DNA of 64,000 nt from an uncultured Gammaproteobacteria bacterium (GCA_965231095.1 OZ246416.1:741595-805594), one strand, 5' to 3'; counted from the stretch's first letter, positions 4,332-57,836 are shown. The notes: generated from the sequence alone by a model not told the origin. Made by a program: numbers and translations.

Positions 4332-4405
4332 GAGTTGAGAGGTGATTGACAATTTTGGGGGTTAAATGTAATCTAGAAAAACCTCCTGCCAGGATTTTTG
4401 GACCT

Positions 4406-4476
4406 GGGCCTATAGTATAGTAGTAAAACGCCTCCATGGCATGGAGGAGTCGAGGGTGCGATTCCCTCTAGGTCCA
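4406..4476 (+). tRNA. tRNA-like gene, probably tRNA-Ala(GGC); atypical D-arm
   Basis: 7-bp acceptor stem with G3:U70. Anticodon stem CCTCC/GGAGG with loop ATGGCAT (anticodon GGC). T-arm GAGGG-TGCGATT-CCCTC. The D-region does not fold canonically. Confidence 0.45.
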
Positions 4477-4529
4477 TAGATTCCGGCGGGAGGTTTTTAA
4501 ATTGGTGCTGACAACTAATAACTAAAATT

Positions 4530-36120: not shown

Positions 36121-36381
36121 TCTTCTATTATATTAATACTCATATTTTTAAATTATACCACTAATTATAATTTATAAACACAAAGCTCCCCGTCAGCTAG
36201 CAACCTTTCGGCCGCCCATACCCCTTTCGGGATATGACCCATCCCTGAGTCACTGAACGAGGAGCTCAATGTCAGGGATGGGTTTTGGAACCATGCCTCG
36301 CGGAGGGAGCGAGGTTTAGGCTTTTTTGTTGTATTTATATTTTAGCAAGAAAAGCTGAGTAATGGAAATGATGATTTAATC

Positions 36382-39533: not shown

Positions 39534-41150
39534 ATGCAACAAATCAACGCCAAAATTAAATTTTTTCTCTATGCTCGGAAATCGTCGGAGAGTGAGGACC
39601 GGCAGGTGCAGTCTATTGAGGATCAGGTTAATAAACTGAAAGAGTTGGCAAAAGATTTTGATTTAGAAGTCGTAAAAATTTTTACTGAGGCGAAGTCTGC
39701 TAAACAGCCAAATAACAGACCGGTATTTGAAGAGATGCTCGGTAAGATTGAACAAGGTGAGGCCGATGGGATTTTATGTTGGCAAATAAATCGTTTATCT
39801 AGAAATCCGGTGGATAGCGGGAGAATAAACTGGATGCTCCAGCAGGGAGTCATAAAAGTTATTAGAACCGTTGATCGCCAGTATCTCCCAGAGGATAATG
39901 TTTTGATGTTTAGTGTGGAAAGCGGAATGGCAAACCAGTTTATTTTAGATTTAAGAAAAAATACAAAAAGGGGATTGAACGGCAAGGCAGAGAGAGGATG
40001 GTTTCCCTCAAAGGCGCCGCAAGGATATTTAAACGACGCATTAAACAAAACAATCATTAAAGATCCGGAAAGATTTGCCTTGATTAGAAAAATGTGGGAT
40101 TTACTTTTGACTGGGAATTTTTTAATCCCTCAGATTTTAAAAATTGTCAATGATGAGTGGGGCTACCGCACGGAAAAAACTAAAAGAGAGGGAGATCGGC
40201 CGCTTTCCATGAGCGGGCTTTACAGATTATTTCATGATCTGTTTTACACCGGCTATTTTAAATATGACGGCAAGTTATACAAAGGCAACCACGAGGCAAT
40301 GATTACGATGGGGGAGTTTGAGCGAGCACAGGAAATTTTACATAAAAAAGAAAAACCGCGACATGCAACGCATGAGTTTGCTTTCACTGGTATTATTAGG
40401 TGCGGATATTGTGGATGTTTGGTAACCGCCGAAGAAAAGAAAAAATTTATTAAAAGTAAAAATGAATATGCAAAATATGTTTATTATCACTGCTCAAAAA
40501 AGAAACGGGAAATAGATTGTCGGGAGCCAGCGATTCGATTAAAAGATTTAGAAGAGCAGATCGTCCAAGAGATTAGCAAATACACAATATCAGAAGATTT
40601 TAAAAATTGGACGTTGGGAGTTTTAAAAGAAAAAAATAGTAAAGAGGTTGAAAGCCGGAGCCAGGCCTACGAAATGACAAATAAAACTTATATTGATTTA
40701 CAAAAGCAGTTAGATAATTTAACGGAGTTACGGATCAAGGAAATGATTAGCGACGGGGAATTTACGGCTAAAAGGTTAGAACTGCAAGAGAAAATAACAA
40801 AGATAAGGGAGGTGTTGAACCAAACGCAGGATCGCGGACAAAATTGGGTTGAGTTGGTTGAGCGGGCGTTTAATTTTGCCGCCCATGCTAGAGAGGCGTT
40901 TATAAAAGGCGATTTGCAAACCAAAAGAGAAATTTTATCGGCCCTGGGCCAAACTTATATTTTGAAGAGTGGGAGTTTGCGGATAGAGCCAGTGGAGTGG
41001 CTCGTGCCCATTTCTAACTTCCTGGAAACAGGGAAAAAACAGGCAAAAGGGTTAGAACCGGCGAATTTTGTTTCAAACAAAACAAAAACACCTCGCCCTG
41101 ATGACGAGATGTTTTTATGGGGTGGCTACTGGGAGTTGAACCCAGGCTAG
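39534..41150 (+). CDS. large serine recombinase (resolvase/invertase catalytic domain plus recombinase and zinc-ribbon domains)
   Basis: N-terminal YARKSSESEDRQ...GILCWQINRLSRN catalytic region and C-terminal Cys-rich (CGYCGC...HCS) Zn-ribbon. The annotated 3-prime end runs into the terminator and tRNA-His, so the true stop is uncertain. Confidence 0.8.
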   Translation: MQQINAKIKFFLYARKSSESEDRQVQSIEDQVNKLKELAKDFDLEVVKIFTEAKSAKQPNNRPVFEEMLGKIEQGEADGILCWQINRLSRNPVDSGRINWMLQQGVIKVIRTVDRQYLPEDNVLMFSVESGMANQFILDLRKNTKRGLNGKAERGWFPSKAPQGYLNDALNKTIIKDPERFALIRKMWDLLLTGNFLIPQILKIVNDEWGYRTEKTKREGDRPLSMSGLYRLFHDLFYTGYFKYDGKLYKGNHEAMITMGEFERAQEILHKKEKPRHATHEFAFTGIIRCGYCGCLVTAEEKKKFIKSKNEYAKYVYYHCSKKKREIDCREPAIRLKDLEEQIVQEISKYTISEDFKNWTLGVLKEKNSKEVESRSQAYEMTNKTYIDLQKQLDNLTELRIKEMISDGEFTAKRLELQEKITKIREVLNQTQDRGQNWVELVERAFNFAAHAREAFIKGDLQTKREILSALGQTYILKSGSLRIEPVEWLVPISNFLETGKKQAKGLEPANFVSNKTKTPRPDDEMFLWGGYWELNPG

Positions 41151-41191
41151 CGGGACCACAACCCGCTGTTCTACCGTTAAACTATAGCCAC
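41117..41191 (-). tRNA. tRNA-His (GTG)
   Basis: Minus strand: GGTGGCTATAGTTTAACGGTAGAACAGCGGGTTGTGGTCCCGCTAGCCTGGGTTCAACTCCCAGTAGCCACC. Anticodon loop TTGTGGT. Confidence 0.8.
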
Positions 41192-42243: not shown

Positions 42244-42323
42244 AAAATACTATATACAATATACTAGAGACTAAATACACAATTAAGCGTCGTACAATTT
42301 TATTTTATCCTAAAATCAACGGC

Positions 42324-42352
42324 TTGACAAATTCTCAAAAACGTGTTATTAT
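42324..42352 (+). promoter_or_regulatory. sigma70-like promoter, TTGACA-17-TATTAT, near-identical to the one at 736
   Basis: TTGACAaattctcaaaaacgtgtTATTATaaa, compared with 736 TTGACAaaaggcaaaaaatgtgtTATTATaaa. Confidence 0.5.
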
Positions 42353-42437
42353 AAAATGTTGAATAATCGTTCTTTTTAAGCTATAATTTGGCTAAAATAA
42401 GGATAAATTTCTATCTTTCTTTTGGCGGTTTTACACT

Positions 42438-42518
42438 GTCATTGCGAGGACCCGCCGAATAGGCGGGGACGCGGCAATCCCACGGTTATGAGATTGCTTC
42501 GCTGCGGCTCGCAATGAC
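42438..42518. repeat. GTCATTGCGAGG...CTCGCAATGAC palindromic element, copy A (in 5-prime leader of DGR target)
   Basis: Shares termini and the core gacgcggcaatcccac...gagattgcttcgctgcggctcgcaatgac with copy B at 44314-44414. Confidence 0.6.
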
Positions 42519-42624
42519 AAAAGAACAGACCCTCAAAAGAAGGCTGGGAATGAAAACCCAAGCCAACCTCCGGGCCACTTCGGTTCGGAGTATCCGCCTA
42601 CTTTGGGTGGAAAGGAAATGAGTC

Positions 42625-43332
42625 ATGAAGGAACGGAAGGCGTCGTGGCGGAGTATCGTGGCGATGCTGGGCGATCTGGACGAGCCGGAACTCCTGGCCC
42701 TTGCGGACAATCCGCAGGAGGTTGGGAAACTGGCGCGGGAGCTCGTCGCCCGGGCGGTGGAGAGCATCTTCTTCACCCCTGTCTCGGACAAGGATCTCGC
42801 CGAGGAACTCCGCGGCCTCGCCGCGAAGTGGCGGCGTCTGGCGGCCGAACTCGGCTACGCCGGGCCCGTGGCCTGGAAGGTCAAAGCCGGCTTCACCCTG
42901 AAGCAGCACGCCCCGAAGGCCGGACCGTGCGAGCAGAACTTCGCCTACCTCCGGGACTGGGAATTCCGGAACGACGAAGCCACGAAGGACGGCATCGTCT
43001 TCTGGATCCCGCGGCTCCTGCCGGGAAGCACGGCGAAGACCGTGAACGAACAGATGAAGCTCCTCGCCGATCTCCGGCAGAGGAACGATCTGCCCGCCAC
43101 CCACCTCACCTCGTTCGGTTCGGCGGCGCTCCTCGCCGGCCTCGTCCTCGCCCACTTCAAGATCACGGGCGAGCGGGTGCCTCTGGACCGCTACTGGGTC
43201 CGGACCGACACCCGGCGCGCGGACGGCATCCGTCTCGGTCTCGGCGACTTCGACGAGAGCGGCCTCTGCTGCTACTCCTACTGGGGCGACTACCGGTACG
43301 TCGACTTGGGCTGCTTCGCTCTGGGGGTGTAA
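42625..43332 (+). CDS. DGR variable (target) protein, GC-rich, 235 aa
   Basis: The C-terminal 117 nt are the VR. No signal peptide. ATG at 42625 preceded by GGAAAGGAAATG. Confidence 0.7.
   Translation: MKERKASWRSIVAMLGDLDEPELLALADNPQEVGKLARELVARAVESIFFTPVSDKDLAEELRGLAAKWRRLAAELGYAGPVAWKVKAGFTLKQHAPKAGPCEQNFAYLRDWEFRNDEATKDGIVFWIPRLLPGSTAKTVNEQMKLLADLRQRNDLPATHLTSFGSAALLAGLVLAHFKITGERVPLDRYWVRTDTRRADGIRLGLGDFDESGLCCYSYWGDYRYVDLGCFALGV
43215..43330 (+). repeat. DGR variable region (VR)
   Basis: Aligns to the TR with about 17 substitutions at TR adenines, one T-to-G near the 3-prime end, and a one-codon gap. Confidence 0.75.
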
Positions 43333-43341
43333 TGGTGCTTG

Positions 43342-43361
43342 GAGCCTAGGACACTAGGCTC
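43342..43361 (+). other. GC hairpin immediately downstream of VR (8-bp stem, GACA loop)
   Basis: GAGCCTAG-GACA-CTAGGCTC, 10 nt after the stop. DGR targets commonly carry such a hairpin needed for homing. Confidence 0.55.
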
Positions 43362-43375
43362 TTGGCCCAGCCCTC

Positions 43376-43420
43376 GGACGCTTGGACCCTGACGCGAGAA
43401 ATCGTGTTGGGGTCTTTTTT
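43376..43420 (+). terminator. terminator-like hairpin plus T-run
   Basis: ggaccc-tgacgcgagaaatcgtgtt-ggggtc plus TTTTTTTATT. Confidence 0.4.
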
Positions 43421-43753
43421 TATTATCAAGTGAGTGAGAGAAATGAAGTCGCAATTTCATTTCCGAGCGAGCGCAGATAATATGTAATATTTCTAAATTA
43501 TGATATAGTTTAAAACTGCGTCGCAAGATGCCGTCGCCCGTGGGCGACGGCCGGCAGGACAAGATATTTGTTGGGCCGGAATGGCGTTGTCTTTATTGAT
43601 CGCGCCAGCGCGCCGGCAGATATCTAAAGAGAACATTGTACACACCCCGTGCCGTAAGTTAGCGGGCTTAAAGACCGCGAATAAAATACAGCTTGGAGAG
43701 TATTCAACAAGCAGTGGCGCGGACGACTTACGGCATATTTTAAAGTTGACCCT

Positions 43754-43872
43754 GAACGCGAACGGCAACCGTCTCGATCTCGGCAACTTCGACGAGAGCG
43801 GCCTCAACTGCGACAACTACAACTGGGACGACAACCGGAACGACAACTTGGGCTGCTTCGCTCTGATGGTGT
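43754..43872 (+). repeat. DGR template repeat (TR)
   Basis: Encodes ...NANGNRLDLGNFDESGLNCDNYNWDDNRNDNLGCFAL with about 10 AAC codons. Followed by hairpin aagaaggcggg-tttgt-cccgccttctt. Confidence 0.75.
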
Positions 43873-43879
43873 GTAGAAA

Positions 43880-43910
43880 AAAGAAGGCGGGTTTGTCCCG
43901 CCTTCTTTTA
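43880..43910. terminator. bidirectional hairpin after TR and at avd 3-prime end
   Basis: aagaaggcgggtttgtcccgccttctt. Confidence 0.4.
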
Positions 43911-44318
43911 ATGAGAAGATTTTTTAAAAATATTTATCCACCCGCCAATCATTTTTCCGGAGGCGGCGAGCGGCAAGGAAAGGGCGGAATATTTTTTATA
44001 GTCTAATCCGTTCAATTCCCAAAGAGTTTTAAGAAAAAATTTCAGACAGTCAAGTTTGGCGCTTAATTTTTGAATGATTTTTGATTTATCTTCGCGGTTC
44101 GCGTAGCCGGCGAGAAGCGTAAGTTCCAAACAATCGGTAAAAAGATTATCAATTTTCACGCCAAGCGAGAAACGGGTCAGGCGCGGCAGGCGGGAAAGAA
44201 AAGAGTGCCAAAGTTTGTACGCCTCGCTAAATTTCGCGAGAAGCGGCAGGTCGGTTTGTGAAGCGTTGGGGGGGGGGATTAGAGGAATAGAATTGGGGCA
44301 TAGGGTTGTTAGCGTCAT
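43908..44318 (-). CDS. avd: DGR accessory variability determinant (Avd, four-helix-bundle family)
   Basis: SEAYKLWHSFLSRLPRLTRFSLGVKIDNLFTDCLELTLLAGYANREDKSKIIQKLSAKLDCLKFFLKTLWEL...LPLAASGKMIGGWINIFKK matches the Avd pattern (LP.K......Q..R...SI..NI.EG ... IGKMLGGWI). The start is uncertain. Confidence 0.65.
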   Translation of the reverse strand: MTLTTLCPNSIPLIPPPNASQTDLPLLAKFSEAYKLWHSFLSRLPRLTRFSLGVKIDNLFTDCLELTLLAGYANREDKSKIIQKLSAKLDCLKFFLKTLWELNGLDYKKYSALSLPLAASGKMIGGWINIFKKSSH

Positions 44319-44414
44319 TGCGAGGGGTCCGCCAAAGTTTTGCGGCGCAAAATTTAGGCGGATGACGCGGCAATCCCACTGTCCGGAGATTGCTTCGCTG
44401 CGGCTCGCAATGAC
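44314..44414. repeat. GTCATTGCGAGG...CTCGCAATGAC palindromic element, copy B (between avd start and RT start)
   Basis: Same termini as copy A; the internal hairpin differs (ccgccaaagttttgcggcgcaaaatttaggcgg). Confidence 0.6.
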
Positions 44415-44428
44415 AATTATTGATAATT

Positions 44429-45457
44429 ATGAAAAAGCAATTAGATAAAATCTTTGAAGAAATTATTTCCTTAGAAAATTTGTTTTTGGCCTGGCAAGAA
44501 TTTTTGGTCGGTAAAAAGAAGAAAAGGGATGTGCAAGAGTTTTTCCGGCATCTGGCTGATAACATTTTAGCGCTTCACGAAGATTTAGCCAATAAAACTT
44601 ATCGCCACGGCGGGTATGAAAGTTTTTATGTCAACGATCCCAAGCGCCGCCATATCCATAAAGCCAGCGTCCGCGACAGATTATTACACCACGCCGTCTA
44701 TAAAATTCTCTATCCGTTTTTTGAAAAAACTTTTATTGCTGATTCATATTCTTGCCGACTTGGTAAAGGAACACATCGGGCACTCAATCGTTTCCGGGCG
44801 GTGGCTTTTCGCGTAAGCAAAAACCACACAAGGACGGTTTGGGTTTTGAAATGTGATATTAAAAAGTTTTTTGCGAGCATTAATCATAAAGTTTTGTCGG
44901 AAATTTTAAGAGAATATATTCCGGATAAAAATATTGTTTGGTTGTTGAAAAATATTATTGGAAGTTTTGTCACCAGCCCCCTCACCCCAACCCTCTCCCC
45001 GAATGGGCGAGGGGACATTGGCCTGCCGCTTGGGAATTTGACCTCGCAGCTTTTTGCCAATGTTTATATGAATGTTTTTGATCAATGGGTGAAACATAAA
45101 CTGAAAACCCAAAATTACTTACGCTACGCCGACGACTTTGTTTTCCTGTCAGAAAATCGCGAGCAACTTTTGAAGATTGTCCCACAAGCAGAAAAGTTTT
45201 TGGCGGAAAAGTTAAAATTAACTTTTCACCCCGAGAAGATTTTTTTTAAAACTTTTGCTTCGGGTGTTGATTTTTTGGGGTGGGTGAATTTCCCGCGTCA
45301 TCGCGTCTTGCGGCGGACAACCGAGCGGCGGATGTTCGCGCGCATTTTGGAAAATCCCGCGCCAGAAACCATGCAGTCGTATTTAGGCCTTCTGAAGCAC
45401 GGAAACACTTTTGGAGTACATCGGCAGGCGCTTATAAAGTATTGGTTATGGCGGTAG
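44429..45457 (+). CDS. DGR reverse transcriptase
   Basis: RT motifs: RHIHKASVRDRLLHHAVY, the GLPLGNLTSQLFANVYMN DGR hallmark, and the YADDFVFL catalytic box. Start chosen at the ATG at 44429; the track starts at TTG 44420. Confidence 0.9.
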   Translation: MKKQLDKIFEEIISLENLFLAWQEFLVGKKKKRDVQEFFRHLADNILALHEDLANKTYRHGGYESFYVNDPKRRHIHKASVRDRLLHHAVYKILYPFFEKTFIADSYSCRLGKGTHRALNRFRAVAFRVSKNHTRTVWVLKCDIKKFFASINHKVLSEILREYIPDKNIVWLLKNIIGSFVTSPLTPTLSPNGRGDIGLPLGNLTSQLFANVYMNVFDQWVKHKLKTQNYLRYADDFVFLSENREQLLKIVPQAEKFLAEKLKLTFHPEKIFFKTFASGVDFLGWVNFPRHRVLRRTTERRMFARILENPAPETMQSYLGLLKHGNTFGVHRQALIKYWLWR

Positions 45458-57699: not shown

Positions 57700-57836
57700 T
57701 TGGATTATTGGACTAAAAAACCACCGGAAACCTGCAGACACGACAAGCACGGGGGTTAATCCTGCGTTCGCCTGGCCTTGGCTCGGCAAAACGCGGGAAT
57801 AACTCTCTTGTCTGCAGATTCCCGGTGGCTTTTGTT
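57700..57836 (+). ncRNA. candidate roughly 135-nt sRNA with closing 5-prime/3-prime stem and intrinsic terminator
   Basis: 5-prime ccaccggaaacctgcagaca pairs with 3-prime tgtctgcagattcccggtgg plus CTTTTGTTTTT. It is convergent with vanW, so it is not its leader. Confidence 0.35.

Follow-up and report, generated by a model that had tools for sequence, protein, structure and literature searches.

The known diversity-generating retroelements (DGRs) closest to the locus considered here include those of the candidate phyla radiation (CPR, or Patescibacteria) and that of Bordetella phage BPP-1. In BPP-1 the element is arranged as mtd - avd - template repeat (TR) - Sp - brt. In 90% of CPR DGRs the arrangement is TR-(avd)-reverse transcriptase (RT), termed architecture B3 (Wu et al. 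2018, PMC5758913). The targets of the CPR elements (clade 2) typically lack transmembrane or other recognisable domains, and new C-type-lectin variants have been predicted among them (Roux et al. 2021, PMC8144416). Handa and colleagues, whose analysis reached no further than 40 nt to the 5' side and 100 nt to the 3' side of each TR, have noted Avd-binding stem-loops just 3' of the TR, as well as duplexes between upstream and downstream sequences in many DGRs, CPR included (Handa et al. 2024, bioRxiv 10.1101/2023.10.23.563531). The locus reported here lies in a 64,000-nt window (the whole stretch of DNA analysed; GCA_965231095.1, OZ246416.1:741595-805594), recorded as from an uncultured Gammaproteobacteria bacterium. 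With a probability of roughly 0.88, it appears to be a complete, chromosomal and probably active DGR of the Patescibacteria type, in the order target - TR - (avd) - RT. Comparative analyses further point to a conserved structured RNA 5' of the TR and to a sharp compositional island over the target gene, and these two features raise the locus above the routine.

A first-pass annotation of the window, made from the sequence alone, had claimed a complete DGR, and this is borne out: an adenine-biased repeat pair, an intact RT, Avd and a target are all present, each within 5 nt of where it had been placed. When the pairwise alignment of the TR with the variable repeat (VR) is tabulated by TR base, 17 of the 19 substitutions fall at TR adenines, which make up 30 of the 121 aligned positions (Fisher p = 7.2e-11). 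The adenine-biased substitutions, a T-to-G change near the 3' end (T43867>G) and a one-codon gap had all been described correctly; a second non-adenine change, T43753>G, sits at the repeat's 5' edge. Since these sole non-adenine differences sit at the repeat edge and at a conserved position of the IMH/IMH* ends (IMH, initiation of mutagenic homing), there appears to have been no random drift between TR and VR since the last transfer. The TR contains 31 adenines, and the 30 that align occupy codon position 1 (12) and position 2 (18) of the VR frame, with 0 at position 3; the TR frame had been said to be packed with AAC codons, and 10 of its 40 codons are indeed AAC. The gap is a single in-frame loss of 3 nt which, in its optimal placement, leaves the VR without the equivalent of TR 43811-43814, beside AAC codons. 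In about 7% of DGRs the TR and VR are of unequal length; most of these differences preserve the frame and lie beside AAC, and RT slippage has been proposed as their cause (Wu et al. 2018, PMC5758913); the one-codon gap is a known outcome of DGR reverse transcription. No second VR-like copy of the TR occurs within the window. Adenine-specific TR/VR differences were also found in seven related loci (L002, L004, L007, L008, L015, L016 and L017).

The repeat ends are conserved across the cassettes compared: CTGGGGGTG closes the VR in 16 of 17, and CTGATG(G/A)TG closes the TR in 20 of 21, the exception in both cases being L017 (TTGGGGGTG and TTGATGATG, respectively), where T replaces the first C at the VR end and the TR end alike. 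At the locus the IMH/IMH* pair is CTGGGGGTG (VR) vs CTGATGGTG (TR), and the T-to-G mismatch near the 3' end is the conserved IMH/IMH* difference and not noise. A hairpin follows the VR; a GC-rich inverted repeat downstream of the IMH is not universal, being reported for 34% of DGRs by Wu et al. (2018, PMC5758913). Palindromes of other sequence stand at this place in L004, L008, L015, L017 and L041 and weak ones in other relatives; they partly overlap the conserved LGS-stop codons, and their conservation is partial. Motifs of the form CTNGG (CTTGG, CTAGG, CTCGG) are dense at 43336-43390, with a spacing of ~8-12 nt, as they are in the target 3' untranslated regions of most related cassettes. In the six closest target homologs, identity over the VR falls 16-23 percentage points below that over the body of the protein (67% vs 87% for homolog P0002). 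One TR can have more than one target: that of L002 matches two VRs, and that of L015 matches a VR on another contig (L013) of the same metagenome-assembled genome, with 19 of 21 mismatches at adenines. That one TR can serve several, also remote, targets accounts for the many target homologs without an RT nearby.

As the first-pass annotation had reported, the RT open reading frame (ORF) encodes YADDFVFL and an LGNLTSQ motif of the [I/L]GxxxSQ type, the latter within GLPLGNLTSQLFANVYMN (the GLPLGNLTSQ region). The protein matches Pfam RVT_1 (E = 2.8e-25). Of the solved structures, 8ub7_A, a chain of 328 aa labelled "Reverse transcriptase", is nearest to it (E = 1.4e-39, covering residues 6-320), well ahead of retron and group II RTs at ~1e-17. 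We take 8ub7_A, from its chain of 328 aa and its series of nine entries, to be the Bordetella phage DGR RT. The class of the enzyme is read from its motif and from similarity to solved structures. Annotated phage genomes contain 172 RT matches, five of them Bordetella phage records; the matches listed are 33-39% identical and include DGR-carrying phages such as ANMV-1 and FP_Lagaffe. Much closer are thousands of Patescibacteria proteins at 59-80% identity; there are at least 8000 close homologs, and those with source names are all from Patescibacteria. Where sources give the homologs (P0121-P0240) a protein name, it is "retron-type", "group II intron RT domain" or "RT/maturase", and never DGR.

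The minus-strand ORF between TR and RT had been identified as Avd-like by its C-terminal GKMIGGWI, which was found as described. Its homologs in six RT-selected cassettes (L182-L187, introduced below) carry precomputed PF22296 matches; a PDB sequence search with Avd gave no match. Near the 5' end of avd a G10 run (44269-44278) is read as CCC CCC CCC proline codons, and G5-G9 runs occur at the same place in L002, L004, L007, L008 and L017; these may be slippage-prone tracts.

The arrangement of these parts is TR (+), avd (-), RT (+), with no other accessory gene, which is architecture B3. Relatives were sampled in three ways. Of genome loci that encode target homologs, 27 (L001-L027) were compared, and all seven that include an RT have target (+), TR (+), avd (-) and RT (+) with an adenine-biased TR/VR pair. 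A further 21 metagenome cassettes, found through the RNA pattern described below, have the same order and avd orientation, and 18 of them retain both avd and RT. Finally, six cassettes (L182-L187, from Falkowbacteria, Magasanikbacteria, Parcubacteria and Yanofskybacteria) were picked by RT similarity alone; all six repeat the gene order with targets unrelated to that of the locus. The B3 order is therefore seen in 31/31 cassettes with avd and RT (25 related and 6 RT-selected), and the earlier claim that an inverted avd makes the layout unusual does not hold: inversion is the CPR norm. That claim carries little weight, as the locus is one more member of a large clade known since 2017; it is a genuine DGR and a typical representative of the Patescibacteria B3 class, of an already known kind. 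Decayed cassettes also exist in the clade. In L055 the leader RNA is followed directly by avd, with no TR; L059 retains the RNA, a ~50-nt TR remnant and the stem-loop, with no avd or RT; and L005 has the RNA and a TR-like repeat, with no RT in the locus.

A feature of this region that the gene order does not reveal is an RNA structure in the 416 nt between the target stop codon and the TR, where blocks of sequence are common to eight cassettes. RNAalifold on these eight gives 38 pairs, 25 with compensatory changes. The RNA was then sampled independently of protein similarity by a metagenome scan with a pattern drawn from invariant unpaired positions only. This gave 34 matches: 20 in cassettes of the same type, 13 by chance in coding DNA and 1 in a decayed remnant (L059); the pattern had no match in viral contigs. 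The consensus of 22 sequences has 49 pairs in eight helices, 37 of the pairs with both sides changed. In these sequences 96.0% of cells are paired, vs 34-43% when partners are slid by 1-3 columns, and 208 cells are double changes, vs 20-41 when slid; 0/500 shuffles reach the observed values. The middle domain (H3 and H4) is absent in 6 of the 22. Ahead of the conserved 5' end, by 6-12 nt, most sequences of alignment A5 plus L183-L187 have TGnTAnnnT, which at the locus is TGATATAGT.

The 5' domain also appears to be tied to the far side of the TR. In the predicted fold of the whole transcript, ACACACC just 5' of the core pairs with GGUGUGU, formed by the TR end and the bases directly after it. 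In an anchored, gap-free alignment of 21 cassettes (A6), 84.9% of the cells of this 12-bp duplex are paired vs 45-57% when slid, with 34 double-change cells vs 3-11; it is the central covarying pairs that carry weight, since AT-rich runs at the outer end of the duplex somewhat inflate the pairing percentage. In subgroup 2 the duplex persists although none of its sequence is shared, with AAUGAAGA in the 5' strand and UCUUCAUU after the TR. The subgroup of the locus has an invariant CACCCCGU before the core. A covariance model for which 16 subgroup-1 cores were the sole input detects the RNA in each of the six cassettes picked by RT similarity, whose targets are unrelated to that of the locus (75-82 bits, E ~1e-16 to 1e-18); the matches end a few nucleotides before the TR. 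It also matches the decayed loci L005, L055 and L059, and finds nothing beside orphan targets without a local RT. Over 30 sequences, including the six cassettes with unrelated targets, 94.3% of cells are paired vs 36-48% when slid, in an alignment that is fitted to the model and leans to its structure. On the 3' side, the TR is followed by a stem-loop that stands where the Avd-binding stem-loop would be expected and that resembles a terminator acting in both directions. Each of the 21 cassettes with a TR has, in this order, an A/G-rich linker, a GC stem-loop of 8-13 bp and unrelated sequence, a T run and then the convergent avd 3' end; at the locus the avd stop codon overlaps the T run, ~35 nt from the TR.

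The existence and conservation of this RNA structure are well supported. A search of the cassette against Rfam, both with the gathering thresholds and with E values up to 10 allowed, gave nothing beyond terminator-like noise, and no description of the 5' domain was found in Rfam or in the DGR literature, although Paul et al. 2017 or a 2026 preprint that mentions DGR non-coding elements may describe it. We infer a role as a docking and priming scaffold for RT and Avd, permuted relative to Bordetella. That the RNA is at once real, functional in reverse transcription and undescribed is a tentative proposition, held at somewhat less than even odds. Comparably tentative is the fuller model in which the template RNA of Patescibacteria DGRs has a ~230-nt docking, and possibly priming, domain 5' of the TR, clamped by the duplex to the TR 3' end beside CACCCCGU, and a short 3' stem-loop, with GC-rich target islands and the exchange of target, RNA, TR and avd as a module linked to it. 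If it is true, an undescribed RNA family would explain how the B3 layout works with an inverted avd where the spacer should be, and the 5' domain with its TR-spanning duplex would be a concrete, testable model for these elements. The covariance model could in addition be used to annotate elements whose RTs public records call "retron-type" or "group II intron".

The process envisaged on comparative sequence evidence would begin with a separate transcript of ~390 nt, starting at the extended -10 promoter near 43515 and ending at the stem-loop and T run of 43879-43909. It would comprise the ~230-nt covarying 5' domain, the 124-nt TR and the terminal stem-loop, with the long-range duplex bringing together the sequences that directly precede the RNA core and directly follow the TR. 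If they act as in the Bordetella phage element, RT and Avd would bind this RNA and reverse-transcribe the TR with misincorporation opposite adenines. The cDNA would then take the place of ~117 nt at the 3' end of the target gene, guided by the IMH end (VR CTGGGGGTG vs TR CTGATGGTG) and by the hairpin downstream of it. Judged from the sequence and the predicted structure, the outcome could be variation at up to ~20 codons in the C-terminal part of a 235-aa protein with a C-type-lectin fold.

The target is predicted to have a canonical C-type-lectin scaffold with the VR on its C-terminal strands and an N-terminal region of three helices. No signal-like or transmembrane-strength hydrophobic segment is present (maximum Kyte-Doolittle value over 19 residues 1.47), and sequence searches of Pfam (including FGE-sulfatase and DUF1566), NCBIfam and PDB gave no match; for the target family neither a name nor a Pfam model exists. 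The earlier description of a small, GC-rich protein without a signal-like segment is accurate, but these traits are lineage- and family-wide rather than atypical. GC content is 0.67 in the target vs 0.43 in the window, and the excess sits at synonymous sites: GC at third codon positions (GC3) is 0.89, vs 0.34-0.50 in nine other window genes and 0.45 and 0.48 in the cassette's own RT and avd. The island has sharp edges and is nearly uniform along the gene (0.79-0.95 over six bins). It recurs in 27/27 homolog loci, and in 11/11 cassettes analysed by codon position. A GC-rich island also covers the target region in 6/6 RT-selected loci, and in the four of these with definable, unrelated target ORFs target GC3 is 0.55-0.84 vs 0.28-0.40 for the RTs. 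Within the island A and T are equally depleted, and the excess scales with host GC. It is therefore general for these cassettes and not peculiar to the locus, a simple, unexplained signature. Three causes were rejected. A recent arrival from a GC-rich donor is at odds with the dependence on host GC and with the recurrence of the excess in homologs that are only 42-83% identical; simple adenine avoidance would not deplete T as strongly as A; and a gradient around the VR would not leave GC3 nearly uniform along the gene. The island could help in finding DGR targets, and it may reflect the mode of cDNA integration.

Two copies of a palindromic repeat had also been flagged, and they are present at the sites named, in the target leader and between avd and RT; their supposed association with the DGR did not survive comparison. 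Each folds as a three-way junction. The right halves of the two are 92% identical, and the first inner hairpin varies in sequence and length but still pairs in both. The family consensus is GTCATTGCGAG-(C/G)GAAGCGAAGCAATCC-loop-GGATTGCTTCG...CTCGCAATGAC. The repeat has no coding capacity, is bounded by short inverted repeats and is scattered in many copies over unrelated genomes; in these respects it resembles miniature inverted-repeat transposable elements (MITE) or repetitive extragenic palindromes (REP). It matched no Rfam family, and a literature text search gave no named family (unrelated primer matches only). The avd-RT spacing into which the second copy falls is ~15-55 nt in compact relatives. 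On sequence comparison, the two palindromes are best regarded as insertions of a ubiquitous repeat, unrelated to the DGR. Of the three features once flagged as atypical, two are thus typical of the lineage and the third has nothing to do with the retroelement.

A syntenic genome, L182 (Falkowbacteria), suggests that parts of the cassette move together. It has the same neighbours, with tRNAs and an integrase-family gene on one side and S15, an NYN-domain gene and PNPase on the other, and its flanks are 82-87% identical to those of the locus up to 42244 and again from 44431 (the RT start). Between these points, block 42245-44430 (leader, target, RNA, TR and avd) is replaced in L182 (1622-3490) by a distantly related module, in which the target is unrelated, Avd is 54% identical and the RNA is of the other subgroup; the RTs are about 79-80% identical. 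The target-RNA-TR-avd block thus appears to have been exchanged relative to L182. Participation of the palindromic repeats in this exchange has a low probability. Flank synteny as a general feature was considered and set aside, as only L182 shares the neighbours of the locus. The target leader of L182 has a palindromic repeat of its own, which a short insertion in the RT of the locus resembles.

Several observations weigh against an active DGR or against parts of the account given here. TR and VR differ by a 3-nt indel. The RT has a 10-aa in-frame insertion (SPLTPTLSPNGRGD, 44976-45016) in the loop just before GLPLGNLTSQ. A hidden Markov model check of Avd, suggested in the first-pass annotation, gave matches over the full model length at scores under the curated cut-offs (NF033474, DivGenRetAVD: E = 1e-17, profile 1-103/104, 64.3 bits vs 80; PF22296, bAvd: E = 6e-9, 36.8 bits vs 40). 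The repeat inserted between avd and RT contains the only canonical start codon of avd (44316-44318), and the only other assembly of the target gene in a sequence-cluster look-up is identical, with no VR variant; its contig, recovered from run SRR8863431, ends at the two palindromic repeats. The roles given to parts of the RNA (protein docking, priming, termination) are putative, and the transcript ends are predicted ones. Such observations could mean that the element is a relic that no longer diversifies, disabled by one of three changes: the repeat, which parts the RT from the sequence normally upstream of it, the insertion in the RT loop, or the unequal length of TR and VR. The same clade does contain the decayed cassettes L055, L059 and L005. 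This is nevertheless quite unlikely, as all three ORFs (target, avd and RT) are intact with catalytic motifs kept, non-adenine TR/VR differences are limited to the 5' edge and the IMH/IMH* position, and in-frame indels beside AAC are typical of active DGRs; moreover, L008 and L002 have larger insertions in the same RT loop, yet clean adenine-only spectra. An active DGR is probably the better reading, favoured by the intact ORFs and motifs and the clean TR/VR spectrum. The chance that the RT is instead that of a retron or group II intron, with a coincidental repeat, is negligible. NCBIfam, which has no DGR RT model, does give a group II intron RT/maturase as the best named match, and names of homologs in public records agree with it, but that match (139.8 bits) is far under its cut-off of 300. 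The match to 8ub7_A, with an E value 22 orders of magnitude better than those for retron and group II RTs, together with the adenine-specific repeat, Avd, the C-type-lectin target and the absence of any Rfam intron or retron RNA family, refutes this identity.

Two further alternatives concern the non-coding parts of this presumably active DGR. The palindromes might be functional, either as ends of a mobile or recombining unit that carries target, RNA, TR and avd, or as regulatory RNA in the target and RT leaders: no third copy occurs in the 64 kb, both copies point the same way, each is followed by a DGR gene on the plus strand, and the block that differs from L182 ends 15 nt past copy 2. Among related cassettes, L007 alone has a copy, upstream of its target. 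In L008, to which the locus is most closely related among the genome loci, the place between avd and RT is taken by an unrelated three-way palindrome (CCTGAGC...GCTCAGG, 1441-1493). The left breakpoint, at 42244, lies ~195 nt outside copy 1, no transposase is present, and the repeat is missing from L002, L004, L015, L016, L017 and L182-L187. Viral contigs unrelated to one another, at least 120 of them and of 36-73% GC, carry at least 135 copies of the repeat, and among those listed no RT, Avd or target homolog is near a copy; a function in the DGR is accordingly improbable. For the RNA upstream of the TR, a regulatory leader (riboswitch-like or protein-binding) acting on TR transcription or stability, outside the reverse-transcription machinery, is a more serious competitor, though still an unlikely one. 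It would stand at the 5' end of its transcription unit as many cis-regulators do, it has a multi-helix junction with invariant unpaired nucleotides, and the essential non-template RNA of Bordetella is mostly 3' of the TR. A leader of this kind does not account well for covarying pairing across the TR with sequence directly 3' of it, for the retention of the RNA in cassettes with unrelated targets but related RT and Avd, or for its persistence with TR remnants in decayed cassettes; and with the avd stop codon lying within the terminator region, next to no space is left in these cassettes for a 3' spacer. The docking scaffold is preferred on these grounds.

The coordinates of the features are collected in the table. 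The two promoter-like sites upstream of the target gene are TTGACA-17-TATTAT (11/12, with TG) and TTGAAT-17-TATAAT.

Table. Features of the DGR locus, numbered from the first nucleotide of the window
Feature	Position	Strand	Basis
Two promoter-like sites upstream of target gene	42324..42387	+	Consensus scan; consensus matches only
Palindromic repeat copy 1, target leader; not a DGR component	42438..42518	.	Termini GTCATTGCGAG / CTCGCAATGAC, fold
Target (variable-protein) gene, 235 aa, C-type-lectin fold	42625..43332	+	ORF and predicted structure
VR, last 40 codons of target	43210..43330	+	Alignment to TR
IMH-like VR end, GC-rich stretch ending in CTGGGGGTG	43305..43329	+	Comparison of cassettes
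Hairpin/cruciform after VR, 9-bp stem, GACA loop	43341..43362	+	Fold
Intrinsic terminator of target gene (predicted)	43384..43425	+	14-bp stem, then T run
Extended -10 element TGATATAGT of TR RNA	43501..43509	+	Read from alignments, not a statistical test
Conserved structured 5' domain of DGR RNA, helices H1-H7	43515..43748	+	Covariation
H1, 5' hairpin domain	43520-43523 / 43552-43555	+	Covariation
H2, 5' hairpin domain	43530-43538 / 43543-43551	+	Covariation
H3, optional middle domain	43574-43576 / 43612-43614	+	Covariation
H4, optional middle domain	43582-43591 / 43598-43607	+	Covariation
Long-range duplex, 5' strand (pairs with 43868-43879)	43635..43646	+	Covariation
Core three-way junction	43640..43741	+	Covariance model; one copy only in window
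Invariant CACCCCGU before core, in subgroup of the locus	43643..43650	+	Alignment
H5, core three-way junction	43649-43660 / 43725-43736	+	Covariation
H6, core three-way junction	43664-43669 / 43673-43677	+	Covariation
H7, core three-way junction	43691-43698 / 43705-43712	+	Covariation
TR	43749..43872	+	Best alignment to VR 43210-43330
Long-range duplex, 3' strand, overlaps last TR bases	43868..43879	+	Fold and covariation
Stem-loop after TR (GC core 43883-43905) between A run and T run	43879..43909	.	Fold -23 kcal/mol, z = -6
avd, accessory variability determinant; N-terminal boundary uncertain	43908..44318	-	NF033474 and PF22296 matches
Palindromic repeat copy 2, between avd and RT; not a DGR component	44314..44414	.	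Sequence and fold
DGR reverse transcriptase	44429..45457	+	RVT_1, 8ub7_A match, LGNLTSQ and YADD motifs

Elsewhere in the window, a large serine recombinase ORF (39534-41150) ends inside a tRNA-His gene (41118-41191, minus strand); DNA to the left of this tRNA may be an integrated element, since homology to L182 starts only at 41078. A match to LOOT RNA (RF03000) lies at 36199-36322 on the minus strand and scores 85.5 bits vs a gathering score of 46.4. Inverted repeats of 28-29 nt, which start with AAAAACC and end with GGTTTTT or GGCTTTT and have 62-64 nt between their arms, occur at 4377-4498 and 57716-57833; the first pair exactly flanks a tRNA-Ala, and between the arms of the second no RNA is annotated.

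Set against the CPR B3 DGRs (Wu et al. 2018, PMC5758913; "DGR clade 2" of Roux et al. 2021, PMC8144416), the locus has the same gene order, orientations and host group and the same unclassifiable small target without membrane signals, and its layout differs in nothing. The 5' RNA domain, the GC3 island and module exchange were not found mentioned in those two papers; Paul et al. 2017 stands outside this comparison. Among solved targets, Treponema denticola TvpA (2Y3C), Thermus TaqVP (5VF4) and Mtd (1YU0) have the C-type-lectin/FGE fold in common with the target of the locus at ~10% sequence identity; the latter differs in its three-helix N-terminal region, in having no lipoprotein or signal sequence and in its length of only 235 aa. 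The RT-10 RNA motif (Weinberg et al. 2017, PMC5737381) and the BPP-1 spacer RNA are likewise conserved structured RNAs beside a DGR TR, presumed to serve reverse transcription, but the RNA of the locus is 5' of the TR, and it has no Rfam match even at E up to 10. With BPP-1 the locus shares adenine-specific transfer from TR to VR, an Avd and RT pair, a C-type-lectin target, IMH/IMH* ends, a hairpin after the VR and a stem-loop directly 3' of the TR. Sequences upstream and downstream of the TR pair in both, and the pairing at the locus may be functionally equivalent. The BPP-1 element is phage-borne, whereas the locus is chromosomal and its target is no tail fibre. The non-template RNA is placed differently: BPP-1 has a 140-nt 3' spacer with the primer adenosine and an RT-binding stem, where the locus, like 21 cassettes, has ~35 nt with an A-rich linker and one stem-loop, and in place of that spacer the locus has ~230 nt of conserved structure before the TR.

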